From a virus: a stretch of DNA of 64,000 nt. Each line of letters opens with the position of its first letter. Position 1 is the stretch's first letter. Under the pieces are notes generated by a model. That model searched no databases. It was not told where the DNA came from and saw nothing but the letters and a program-made list of their open reading frames with translations. Positions 18,200-27,304 of the stretch are shown here, in pieces. The stretch is from IMG/VR virus record IMGVR_UViG_3300017769_000001, positions 32,001-96,000 of that record; one strand, written 5' to 3'. The position numbers and the translations under genes were made by a program.

Positions 18200-18494
18200 C
18201 GTTTATAACCTTCATCTTCGATACGTTGGTTACGGTTTCTTCGGTGATGCATTCTTTTGTCAACTCTACGAAGTCATCAACAATTTGATCTGTGACTTCC
18301 TGCTTTACCTGAAGAAACCGCTTGTTTACTGGATGTCCGGTTTTGTGATCCCCGACAACAAGCATCGGCATCAGCTTGTTGTGTCCCAGATGAACCATCC
18401 ACTCACGACCATTGTAATCGAACGTCTTGATGACGTCAACCTCGTAGGAATGATTCTCCGGATCCAGACCGATGATTTTAGCTTTTGCTTTCAT
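18183..18494 (-). CDS. Hypothetical protein
   Basis: Operon packing. Confidence 0.6.
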   Translation of the reverse strand: MKAKAKIIGLDPENHSYEVDVIKTFDYNGREWMVHLGHNKLMPMLVVGDHKTGHPVNKRFLQVKQEVTDQIVDDFVELTKECITEETVTNVSKMKVINDGGQD

Positions 18495-18720
18495 CCCACT
18501 TCCTCACCTTGTTTGCGATTTGAAGAATCTCTGAATCAGTCAGAGAAGTGTTAACCGTTCTGCGTATTTCACAGCAAAGCTCTTCAAATGTCAACGTCGA
18601 TGTTTCTTCGGTTTTCTTCTTACCAAATATTCTGTCGTAGTTTTCGCTGTATGCCTGATAGGAAGAACTTCCTGCCCGTGTTTTAATACTGTCTCCAGTT
18701 ATGTCGTTTCTTGCTGCCAT
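18478..18720 (-). CDS. Hypothetical protein (NDITGDSI / NYDRIF phage family)
   Basis: Motifs recurrent in small phage proteins. Confidence 0.65.
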   Translation of the reverse strand: MAARNDITGDSIKTRAGSSSYQAYSENYDRIFGKKKTEETSTLTFEELCCEIRRTVNTSLTDSEILQIANKVRKWDESKS

Positions 18721-19319
18721 TATAGTAGCTCCAGTCTCAGTTTTATAAATGAATGATCAATGTCGCTCATCGTAACATAATCGTGATCGAATGTTAATTC
18801 CAAATCAAGACACGAGTGATCCATGTGCGCCAAGTACTGATGATAAAAGAATTGCGAATACAAACTCTCCGAATGGAACTTATCGTAAGAGTTTAGAAAC
18901 TTACTATACAATTCACCGACCATGATCGTCATCCAATACGTCGGCTTGACTTTGAACGCCGCTACTGGTTTTTCGTATGTAAGATCTTCTCTATAGTACA
19001 TGAATGAAAGTGAGCACTGAGTTCCAGACAAATAGTCTTGATGGATCCCCACAATGAGACCTCCGATTTTGAAGAACGCCTCATGTGGAGTTCCAAAACA
19101 AATCCCGGCTCTTCTCATATCATCCATGTCTAGCCGTCTGATCTCATCAATGATACAGAATGCCTTGAACATTTCTTCGGAACCACCAAACCGCATCATA
19201 AACCGATTTGAAGTTATCAATCCGGGGAGTGCTATGTTGTATGCGAGATTGTACCAGCGCATTCTCCTGAAGAACTTCTTTCTCCGGTTCGTGAATATCG
19301 TCTGGTCGTTAAGATCCAT
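18720..19319 (-). CDS. Hypothetical protein (C-terminal Leu-helix group)
   Basis: Operon packing. Confidence 0.65.
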   Translation of the reverse strand: MDLNDQTIFTNRRKKFFRRMRWYNLAYNIALPGLITSNRFMMRFGGSEEMFKAFCIIDEIRRLDMDDMRRAGICFGTPHEAFFKIGGLIVGIHQDYLSGTQCSLSFMYYREDLTYEKPVAAFKVKPTYWMTIMVGELYSKFLNSYDKFHSESLYSQFFYHQYLAHMDHSCLDLELTFDHDYVTMSDIDHSFIKLRLELL

Positions 19320-24124: not shown

Positions 24125-24192
24125 GACATCTCCCAGAAGTTCTAGTGAGATTGAATTATTTCACAATAGAGTTTCGATGTCAACAAGAATTT

Positions 24193-24651: not shown

Positions 24652-24757
24652 TGCAGGTTGGTGTCTCAAACCAAGAAATCCCGAACCCTGAACTGAGACA
24701 TTGGCAGTCTGTCGCGAATCGACACTTCCGCTCAGTTCTTTGAGGATTTTACCTGCA
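24652..24757 (-). ncRNA. Structured RNA between tRNA-Trp and tRNA-Ser
   Basis: TGCAGGT/ACCTGCA, AAATCCT/GGGATTT, GAACTGAG/CTCAGTTC, TTGGT/ACCAA. Confidence 0.6.
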
Positions 24758-24760
24758 ATG

Positions 24761-24832
24761 TGGCACTCTGTCAAGGATTCGAACCCTGCACGGCGAAGTT
24801 TGGAGCCTCGCCTGCCCCCAAGAGCCCAGAGC
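24761..24832 (-). tRNA. Atypical tRNA-Trp(CCA): minimal D arm, 7-bp anticodon stem
   Basis: GGCGAGG-CTCCAAA-CTTCGCC, T arm, G73, CCA. Confidence 0.7.
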
Positions 24833-25014: not shown

Positions 25015-25045
25015 ACCCATCAGTTTACGCCTGATGGGACGCGTT

Positions 25046-25646: not shown

Positions 25647-25721
25647 TGGAGCGGGTAATCGGTCTCGAACCGATCCACGGAGGGTGGAAGCCTCCCGCTC
25701 TACCAACTGAGCTATACCCGC
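25647..25721 (-). tRNA. tRNA-Gly(TCC), first tRNA of the operon
   Basis: Cloverleaf, U73, CCA. Confidence 0.9.
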
Positions 25722-25740
25722 AAAACTTTTTCAACTTCCT

Positions 25741-25775
25741 AAAACGAGAAAACCCTTCTTGTTTGAAGGGCTTTC
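25741..25775 (-). terminator. Attenuator terminator (3:4 hairpin)
   Basis: GAAAGCCCTTC-AAACAA-GAAGGGTTTTC then TCGTTTT, 20 nt before tRNA-Gly. Confidence 0.75.
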
Positions 25776-25806
25776 AGAAAACTTACGTGTGTTTACTCTA
25801 CGTACG

Positions 25807-25923
25807 CTAGAAGCCCTTAATCTCTACCTCGCGATCACTCCAAATATTAAAGCCGAGCGACATCGCGGGATTATGATATCCCTTTGCCGGTTGTGCTTTT
25901 GTGTTGGAGTTCATAGTAAACAT
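25807..25923 (-). CDS. 38-aa leader peptide of the tRNA operon (not in ORF track)
   Basis: MFTMNSNTKAQPAKGYHNPAMSLGFNIWSDREVEIKGF*; 19 different amino acids; last codons complementary to the terminator 5' arm. Confidence 0.75.
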   Translation of the reverse strand: MFTMNSNTKAQPAKGYHNPAMSLGFNIWSDREVEIKGF

Positions 25924-25987
25924 ACTTAAATTCTCTGAGTATTCCCTTAGTTAGTGTTGAAAAACTATCAAAATTTAGACCTACTGA

Positions 25988-26085
25988 AAAATTTTAGATA
26001 CCTCTGACTAGGAGTCGAACCTAGATCGAAAACGCGAAGCGAATTCCGGCATACCGTTAACCGCACCAAAGGCATCTAAAATTTT
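25988..26085 (-). ncRNA. tRNA mimic with ~19-bp extended acceptor helix
   Basis: AAAATTTTAGATGCCTTTG/CAGAGGTATCTAAAATTTT; CTAGG-TTCGACT-CCTAG. Confidence 0.6.
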
Positions 26086-26243
26086 ACCTGAATGAAGGAC
26101 TCGAACCTCCATATCTACATTACGTTGCACTGTCAGTAGAAAGGTAGCTTTCGCCATGAGTGCAGAGTCGCTTATTAGTATTACACGACCCATTCATATC
26201 GGCTTAGGCCACACCCCCGTATACCAGTTCCGGCAATTCAGGT
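26086..26243 (-). ncRNA. 158-nt tRNA-like RNA with a large insert in place of the anticodon arm
   Basis: ACCTGAAT/ATTCAGGT, D arm CCG-GAACTGGTATA-CGG, T arm GGAGG-TTCGAGT-CCTTC. Confidence 0.65.
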
Positions 26244-26244
26244 G

Positions 26245-27130
26245 TTGGGTTTCGCATTCAACGTAACGTACAAGTAGCCGGTATTACTCGTTACTATCAA
26301 ATGCAGCTCGTTCCTATTGTACTACTTTCTTGGTAATCCACCCACAGCTTCCCAAGTTTCTTTGCTCCCCGGCCTTTTCACGCTCCGCTTTCACGGCTAC
26401 GGTCGAATCTCCGGTTTAGATCCCAATCCAACCCTTTCCGGGTTTGGCTCTAAGGGATCGTTCTGCCTATTCTCTCTATTTAGATAGCCACAATTGGCTC
26501 TGTCATCTATGAATGGAGACATCAGGCTTCGCTCCAATTTTATGGTGACGGGTTCTTCCTGCCTAAACCGTGTGATTAGCACGTTCACCATCTTCGTTAG
26601 ATCCGCCTCTCAAGGTCGCAGACCAGTAACCAAACACGCTACTCTAATAGGCTTCAATCATCCGGATGGCCGTCCGTCGATTTTCCACCTGTCTGAGCCG
26701 AACATACCCCGATATGCCAACCCAGACCCCTTTCGGGATGAAACGACCCTTTCAGGCCGATCCATTAAACGCTTTCGAGTATACGCTTGTAACGAGTATT
26801 CGGGGATCACAATATTCATCCCTACGATGATAGCATGATCGAATGTTAGTCATACTTCCCAGAACCGTTACCTTAACTGGGTAAGGAAGTCCAGAAACCA
26901 ACTTGGCGGTTGGCTCTTAAACACCCTTTATACTGGATCGGCTTTGTGCGCCAACACAACTACCAATCCGACACCGTTGTTGGGAGTAACTCAGCCAACG
27001 ACTTCTAACCTCCCTAGTGCCCTCACTATAAACAACCGCCTAAGCAATCATTTATGAAGCCCGTATGTAAGACTCCAATTTTACCTCCGGTGATCTCGGA
27101 GGGTTTCACCGCCGGGTTCCCCCGACTGCG
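26245..27130 (-). ncRNA. Giant structured ncRNA (~885 nt), GOLLD/ROOL-like class
   Basis: No credible ORF, many GNRA-capped stems, complementary loops, dedicated promoter, next to tRNAs. Confidence 0.7.
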
Positions 27131-27136
27131 TAATCT

Positions 27137-27165
27137 ATTCTATTAAAGGCTCACTCCATTGTCAA
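27137..27165 (-). promoter_or_regulatory. sigma70 promoter of the giant RNA / tRNA operon
   Basis: TTGACA-17-TAGAAT; a second TTGACA-18-TATAAT lies at 27277-27248. Confidence 0.8.
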
Positions 27166-27304
27166 CACCTTTTTCGAATTTTTTCGTTGATTCGATTCAG
27201 AAGACTTATGCCATGCCTTGTCTGCTTCCTAAGATCAACGTTTGAAAATTATAAGCTCTAGTTAGTGTTCGTGTCAACCAAAATTTGAAGAAAATTTGAA
27301 AATT

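Follow-up and report, generated by a model that had tools for sequence, protein, structure and literature searches.

A predicted structured spacer with a putative partial terminator ahead of the tRNA genes of an uncultured phage

Results

The tRNA region and its surroundings

The DNA analysed here (the window) is a stretch of 64,000 nucleotides that spans positions 32001-96000 of an IMG/VR virus record; the record has 148,739 bp and carries direct terminal repeats. The phage is an uncultured relative of the rV5-like and Vequintavirinae-like myoviruses. ARAGORN located 19 tRNA genes on the minus strand, from 25721 to 20829, to which a relaxed scan added tRNA-Ser(UGA). Two odd tRNA-like genes on the same strand were both missed by ARAGORN. 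The one at 22335-22254 has the anticodon loop CUGUAAA, by eye that of a tRNA-Tyr (GUA), and gives a weak Rfam score against the tRNA-Sec model; the one at 24353-24274 has the anticodon loop CUACGAA, by eye Arg (ACG), and seems to lack a normal D arm. A second cluster, of three tRNAs (Met, Arg-UCU and Leu-UAA; genome positions 18407-19231), is located outside the window. Upstream of this second cluster we noticed an ORF that resembles an HNH endonuclease by eye, and after it an ORF of 67 aa with its end 1 nt ahead of tRNA-Met.

The 671-aa DUF8224 protein encoded next to the region (Table 1) had a best identity of ~50% among GenBank phages, 51% in IMG/VR and 56% in metagenomes, and its closest homologue among 5.8 billion predicted proteins was 57% identical. 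The other copies found by an exact-protein look-up were all 100% identical. In some distant relatives (L013, 7504-7892; L017, 21610-21954), a tmRNA gene, permuted in one of them, is found just downstream of the DUF8224 homologue, at the same position as the ncRNA and tRNA region of the present phage.

Between 20000 and 29000 of the window there are six sigma-70-type promoter matches of 11-12/12, all on the minus strand, whereas the neighbouring coding DNA has one in 19 kb. Two of the strong promoters would drive a unit that begins with an ncRNA of ~900 nt, for which no Rfam match was found (GOLLD and ROOL included), and that continues with two tRNA-like elements, neither of which matched the Rfam tRNA model. 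The second of these elements lies directly upstream of a 277-nt spacer (25998-25722, minus strand) that precedes tRNA-Gly. The original prediction was that this spacer carries a leader-peptide attenuator that gates the tRNA operon, in which the stalling of a ribosome at almost any codon of a short ORF frees an antiterminator and induces tRNAs for all 20 amino acids. The operon does not begin with this element, which is located ~1.2 kb behind two strong promoters, the ~900-nt ncRNA and the two tRNA mimics. This position within a non-coding unit, without a promoter of its own directly ahead, is one point against an attenuator.

Table 1. Features in and around the spacer ahead of the tRNA array (window coordinates).
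Feature	Position	Strand	Remarks
DUF8224 protein, 671 aa	28902-30917		neighbour of the tRNA/ncRNA region
sigma-70 promoter, 12/12 match	27277-27248	-	farther of the two strong promoters
near-consensus sigma-70 promoter, TTGACA-17-TAGAAT, 11/12	27137..27165	-	nearer of the two that would drive the unit
~900-nt ncRNA	26245-27137	-	no credible ORF; strong predicted fold at -302 kcal/mol (20 shuffles, z=-4.0)
tRNA-like element 1	26085..26243	-	acceptor, D and T arms; ~80 extra nt replacing the anticodon arm; found by ARAGORN only with introns allowed
tRNA-like element 2	25999..26073	-	good T arm and acceptor stem, degenerate anticodon arm; found by ARAGORN only at lowered threshold
weak promoter-like site, TCGACT-16-TAAAAT, 9/12	25991..26018	-	sole candidate for a dedicated leader promoter
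P0 5' strands (outer helices)	25943..25966	-	in read-through RNA, predicted partners of 25749-25725 on the far side of the terminator
P1 5' arm	25915..25938	-	holds the Shine-Dalgarno-like GAGAA, the AUG and codons 1-3
38-codon ATG ORF, candidate leader peptide	25807..25923	-	weak Shine-Dalgarno, orphan, uncalled by gene callers
P2, extended irregular hairpin, 73 nt	25838..25910	-	ORF codons 5-29; competes with the 'pause' hairpin 25867-25830
segment 2 (AAGGGCUUCUAG, stop codon included)	25807..25818	-	able to pair with the terminator 5' arm
P1 3' arm	25774..25797	-	between stop codon and terminator; abuts the terminator stem
segment 3 (CUGAAAGCCCUU)	25766..25779	-	common to the antiterminator and the terminator 5' arm
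intrinsic-terminator-like hairpin and interrupted U tract UCGUUUU	25741..25775	-	11 bp, 5 G-C pairs, loop AAACAA, -15.4 kcal/mol
P0 3' strands	25725..25749	-	U tract included; end 4 nt before tRNA-Gly
tRNA-Gly(UCC)	25647..25721	-	first canonical tRNA of the array
second terminator-like hairpin	25016..25038	-	right after tRNA-Phe; would end the block behind the 25775 hairpin after seven tRNAs
internal promoter, 11/12 match	24746..24774	-	first of several that would free distal tRNAs from the 25775 hairpin

A short frame with unusual residue diversity

The minus strand of the spacer carries an ORF (25923-25807) that reads MFTMNSNTKAQPAKGYHNPAMSLGFNIWSDREVEIKGF and then a stop codon. As originally described, it has 19 distinct residues, with Cys alone missing, all 19 are found within codons 8-33, and the synonymous codon pairs listed for repeated residues are correct. 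At least 19 residues occur in 1.5% of 38-aa stop-free windows and in 2 of 46 ATG ORFs of 36-40 aa. For 19 residues in 26, a length chosen after the fact, the count was 14 of 119,788 windows genome-wide (~9 loci), and among 401 ATG ORFs of 30-50 aa the present ORF was the only one to reach this diversity.

Extreme amino-acid diversity favours an attenuator, as does the codon usage of the frame, which is nearer to that of real genes than to that of wrong-frame ORFs (likelihood ratio ~3.5; 3.9% of wrong-frame windows were as high). Residues that belong to the first tRNA block account for 55% of the peptide. The codons read by the tRNAs of this block are mildly enriched (42% vs 29 +/- 7.5% in null ORFs, p=0.047), which is a further point in favour. 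Codons read by any phage tRNA were not enriched in the ORF (p=0.115). Each residue occurs 1-4 times and runs of regulatory codons are absent, which counts against an attenuator.

The Shine-Dalgarno of the ORF is weak, with a duplex energy of -2.9 kcal/mol vs a gene median of -5.9 kcal/mol in 107 long ORFs; 81% of these ORFs have a stronger one, and 37% of random sites are equal or stronger. The peptide is an orphan. Searches of the 38-aa sequence by tblastn against phages and 133 related loci gave no match, phmmer against 1.84 billion representative proteins gave no homologue, and Pfam had no match. Two phmmer hits were rejected as artefacts, since each is the sum of matches to a short repeat, GFNIWS, of unrelated giant proteins (SdrD-like and CIA30 repeat proteins). 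On two identical contigs, the gene callers called no gene at the site of the ORF, and chance frames of 53-64 codons were found in the adjacent ncRNA.

The gene-compatible codon usage, together with the terminator-like hairpin that begins 32 nt after the stop codon, might point to a real 38-aa small-protein gene with its own terminator, in which no switching occurs and the complementarity of the ORF to the terminator arm is incidental. We consider this improbable, because the peptide is an orphan, the weak Shine-Dalgarno is accompanied by a start codon buried in a 22-bp helix, and the frame, which was passed over by the gene callers, is surrounded by ncRNAs and tRNAs with no protein-gene neighbours.

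Two mutually exclusive pairings near the stop codon

Downstream of the ORF, an 11-bp hairpin at 25775-25748 (-15.4 kcal/mol) is followed by a U-rich tail that ends at 25741, 20 nt ahead of tRNA-Gly (start 25721). This G+C-containing stem-loop with its U-rich tail, TCGTTTTAGG, is predicted from its sequence to be an intrinsic terminator. The end of the ORF, AAGGGCUU-C-UAG (25818-25807), can pair with CUG-A-AAGCCCUU (25779-25766) in 8+3 bp, and with the additional UACGU/ACGUA pairing the energy of this antiterminator (the 2:3 pairing) is -14.6 kcal/mol. The 2:3 pairing and the terminator are mutually exclusive and near-isoenergetic (-14.6 vs -15.4 kcal/mol), and this near equality favours an attenuator. 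Since the stop codon is inside segment 2, a terminating ribosome would mask this segment. These parts of the original prediction were reproduced in full. The pause-like hairpin that it had placed within the ORF (25867-25830) stood in part: it folds alone at -13.1 kcal/mol, but it is absent from the minimum-energy fold.

The antiterminator duplex had p=0.012 when compared with the 60 nt upstream and p=0.067 when compared with 166 nt. The joint architecture was defined as an ORF placed such that a ribosome at its stop codon would hide an antiterminator of -12 kcal/mol or lower; to test it, we kept the terminator and shuffled the upstream 219 nt. The architecture was found in 0.3-2.5% of 5000 dinucleotide shuffles, a range set by the start codons and the minimum length allowed, and this result (p 0.003-0.025) also argues for an attenuator. 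Because of the rare residue diversity and the low frequency of the joint architecture in the shuffles, we conclude that the resemblance of the geometry to that of an attenuator is real and no trivial outcome.

The predicted fold of the spacer

The minimum-energy and centroid folds of 25945-25723 and 25938-25776 contained P1, P2 and the terminator, without the 2:3 pairing, with z=-4.2 and -4.3, and none of 200 shuffles was as stable. P1, with 22 bp (duplex -19.4 kcal/mol, p=0.03), closes a three-way junction, and the terminator is stacked directly on it in the predicted fold. Both the AUG of the ORF and its only Shine-Dalgarno-like bases are inside P1. When folded as a whole, the 277-nt spacer gave a rod in which the outer helices P0 (duplex -13.7 kcal/mol, p=0.026) close across the terminator, with z=-3.9; in a control with coding windows of equal length, 1 of 19 had an equally low z. 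P0 and P1 are each only modestly significant. The P0 helices span the hairpin, which suggests that the read-through form of the RNA may also be functional.

In having a three-way junction closed by P1 and abutting a terminator, the spacer is built on the general plan of T-box leaders and transcriptional riboswitches. Conceivably, a trans factor would take the place of the ribosome: by weakening P1 or the junction, a protein, a small ligand or an uncharged tRNA would make segment 2 available for antitermination. We regard such a switch as very improbable, since the spacer matched no Rfam family: with T-box, riboswitch and amino-acid leader families included, nothing was found at the gathering score or at E <=1, and the best hit was rnk_pseudo (17.6 bits, E=6). 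Moreover, in view of the P1 lengths of riboswitches, a P1 of 22 bp has far too much stability for a ligand to tip it.

The effect of a ribosome on the spacer

We examined the effect of a translating ribosome with constrained folds, in which a footprint of 30 nt was kept unpaired; the test is a purely in-silico one that combines equilibrium folding with an argument from the order of synthesis. In the full transcript, the terminator had a probability of at least 0.97 in every ribosome state tested. When the transcript was cut before segment 4, P1 had P=0.8-0.97 and the 2:3 pairing ~0 for every ribosome position tested between codon 8 and the stop codon. Transcription also reaches the 3' arm of P1 earlier than segment 3, which gives P1 a kinetic head start. 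The claim that stalling at almost any codon frees the antiterminator did not hold up in these folds, since with a single footprint at the tested codons 8-36 P1 kept P=0.8-0.97 and 2:3 stayed at ~0. That P1 can form while segment 3 is still unmade, and prevails over 2:3 for each single ribosome placed at codon 8 or beyond in these tests, argues against an attenuator.

The 2:3 pairing reached P ~0.9 only when the 5' arm of P1 was also held single-stranded and the ribosome was at codon 30 or before. With P1 blocked and segment 4 not yet made, 2:3 had P=0 with the ribosome at codon 33 or beyond and at the stop codon. This dependence on the ribosome position, given that P1 is blocked, counts in favour of an attenuator. 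Codons up to ~30 alone could give a signal, as the footprint leaves Arg31 borderline and Glu32 and Val33 outside. The proposed sensing of 19 amino acids is thus reduced to 16 amino acids in 30 codons, an ordinary count, and this, like the lack of codon runs, weakens the case for an attenuator.

Because P1 pre-empts the 2:3 pairing for ribosomes from about codon 9 on, a switch would be workable only if queued or initiating ribosomes occupied the start region. The need for an occupied start region fits poorly with the weak Shine-Dalgarno, and its burial in P1 adds to the evidence against an attenuator. What these folds leave is a ribosome-mediated leader-peptide attenuator narrower than first proposed. 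A ribosome at the stop codon would mask segment 2 and cause termination, whereas a stalled ribosome, with followers on the 5' arm of P1, would allow read-through into the first 7-9 tRNAs. Both the existence of such an attenuator and this logic for it we consider possible but doubtful. In its most specific form, the frame would be translated and would act as a multi-amino-acid 'translation-health' attenuator, in which, behind a slow or stalled ribosome, queued ribosomes hold P1 open, segment 2 captures the terminator arm and transcription reads through into the first tRNA block; this we consider rather unlikely.

How far the hairpin could act downstream

The tRNAs that the 25775 hairpin could control are fewer than originally predicted. 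Gating of a tRNA set for all 20 amino acids is contradicted by the second terminator-like hairpin after tRNA-Phe, by the internal promoters, and by the three tRNAs located in the second cluster. Besides the internal promoter listed in Table 1, there are further 11/12-match promoters at 24183 and 22749 on the minus strand. Because of the hairpin after tRNA-Phe and the strong internal promoters, at most 7-9 tRNAs could depend on the 25775 hairpin. That the distal tRNAs have promoters of their own is evidence against an attenuator of the array. On the other hand, no strong promoter is found between the 25775 hairpin and tRNA-Trp, so that the intervening tRNAs depend on read-through; this reliance of the tRNAs up to tRNA-Trp is consistent with an attenuator.

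Other spacers of the cluster are also structured. The 112-nt spacer between tRNA-Ser(UGA) and tRNA-Ala (24547-24436, minus strand) has a near-perfect closing helix of 23 bp and z=-7.3, which makes it the most extreme structure in the tRNA cluster, and it is a candidate double-strand processing site or small RNA. The z values of other cluster spacers were -3.7, -2.7 and -2.6. The idea that all spacers close end to end was dropped, as closure was significant in only 3 of the 7 spacers tested; for this reason we use it as context and not as proof. A boxA-like motif after tRNA-Gly was likewise set aside, since its 9 matches in the window (5.6 +/- 2.3 expected) are not above chance.

Searches for related elements

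With blastn against GenBank phages, the tRNA-Gly gene was the sole match. The exact terminator pattern was absent from IMG/VR, and 25723-27300 had no match by blastn or nhmmer in 133 related loci (1.9 Mb). No paralogue of the element was found in its own genome, and no comparable leader is present ahead of the second tRNA cluster. The original prediction had suggested that diverse leaders be sought ahead of related tRNA arrays. We ran this search on the 60 array-first tRNAs in the 133 loci, and found a nearby terminator-like hairpin in 4 cases and a diverse leader in none. The lack of a homologue, of a gene call and of recurrence, both in the genome and in the 60 related tRNA arrays, argues against an attenuator. 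In literature searches on attenuation or phage tRNAs, we found no paper that describes an attenuator ahead of phage tRNA genes.

Discussion

The original prediction survives in part. Its terminator, the exclusive pairing and the stop codon in segment 2 are present as described, but stalling at almost any codon and control of tRNAs for all 20 amino acids were not upheld, and the element does not head the operon. The signals for a structured spacer and those for an attenuator form two mutually exclusive sets, each modestly significant. The nested P0 and P1 helices favour a structured spacer, as do the orphan peptide, the non-coding surroundings and a start that is weak as well as buried. The strongly structured spacers elsewhere in the cluster, the ORF-poor, structured RNA upstream and the chance frames in it point the same way; the geometry of ORF, antiterminator and terminator, the codon usage, the residue diversity and the match of the codons to the first tRNA block count against a structured spacer. 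We put the chances about even that the 277 nt constitute a structured non-coding spacer with a partial terminator. We infer the non-coding status of the spacer, and the most likely form of the RNA, as predicted by folding, would be a closed non-coding rod with a built-in terminator.

A structured spacer of this kind would fit into a long, untranslated transcription unit that runs from the strong promoters through the ~900-nt ncRNA and the two tRNA mimics to the spacer and the tRNAs. The spacer itself would consist of nested long-range helices, with P0 outermost, P1 around the three-way junction and the terminator stacked on P1. The 25775 hairpin would most likely be a constitutive and presumably leaky terminator that also forms 3' ends, and it would determine how much of the first tRNA block (Gly to Phe, possibly Trp) is made relative to the upstream ncRNAs. 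By keeping the untranslated spacer compact, the closing helices may protect the RNA from Rho and nucleases, or they may provide a double-stranded processing site. The 38-codon frame would then be fortuitous and probably not translated.

The element can be compared with three kinds of known systems. The first is the leader-peptide attenuators (trpL, hisL, thrL and ilvL), in which, as here, a short ORF ends in a segment that pairs with the 5' arm of a terminator, the antiterminator and the terminator exclude each other, and the terminator is immediately ahead of the regulated genes. Unlike these leaders, the present ORF has no run or high fraction of regulatory codons and has a weak Shine-Dalgarno, and in the present element the start is locked in a helix of 22 bp that prevails over the antiterminator. 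The genes downstream are tRNAs, the element is located deep in a non-coding unit, and it matches no Rfam leader family.

The second comparison is with two RNAs, RNAC and RNAD, that are encoded within the tRNA cluster of phage T4. They are small RNAs of unknown function (PMC9697503) and are the nearest described non-coding neighbours of phage tRNAs. They share with the present element a structured RNA of ~150-250 nt that has no assigned coding function and is located among phage tRNA genes. Unlike them, the present element carries an embedded terminator and precedes the tRNAs, and it is known here from its sequence and predicted fold. The third comparison is with the ordinary Rho-independent partial terminators of operons, which have the same A-tract, stem with a G+C core and U-rich tail between parts of one unit. 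The present hairpin differs from ordinary Rho-independent terminators in that its U tract is interrupted (UCGUUUU).

Phage tRNAs are now regarded as a counter to the tRNA-cleaving defences of the host (PMC10264068, PMC11555353). If the attenuator were true, the phage would make more of its own tRNAs once those of the host are uncharged or cleaved, and such a sensor, coupled to the ribosome and placed before a block of tRNA genes, would add a new principle of regulation. If instead the spacer is a structured non-coding one, this uncultured phage would fill the head of its tRNA cluster and the spacers with partial terminators and with compact RNAs closed by helices. The value of that finding would be modest, as a lead on how long untranslated phage transcripts stay intact and get apportioned.
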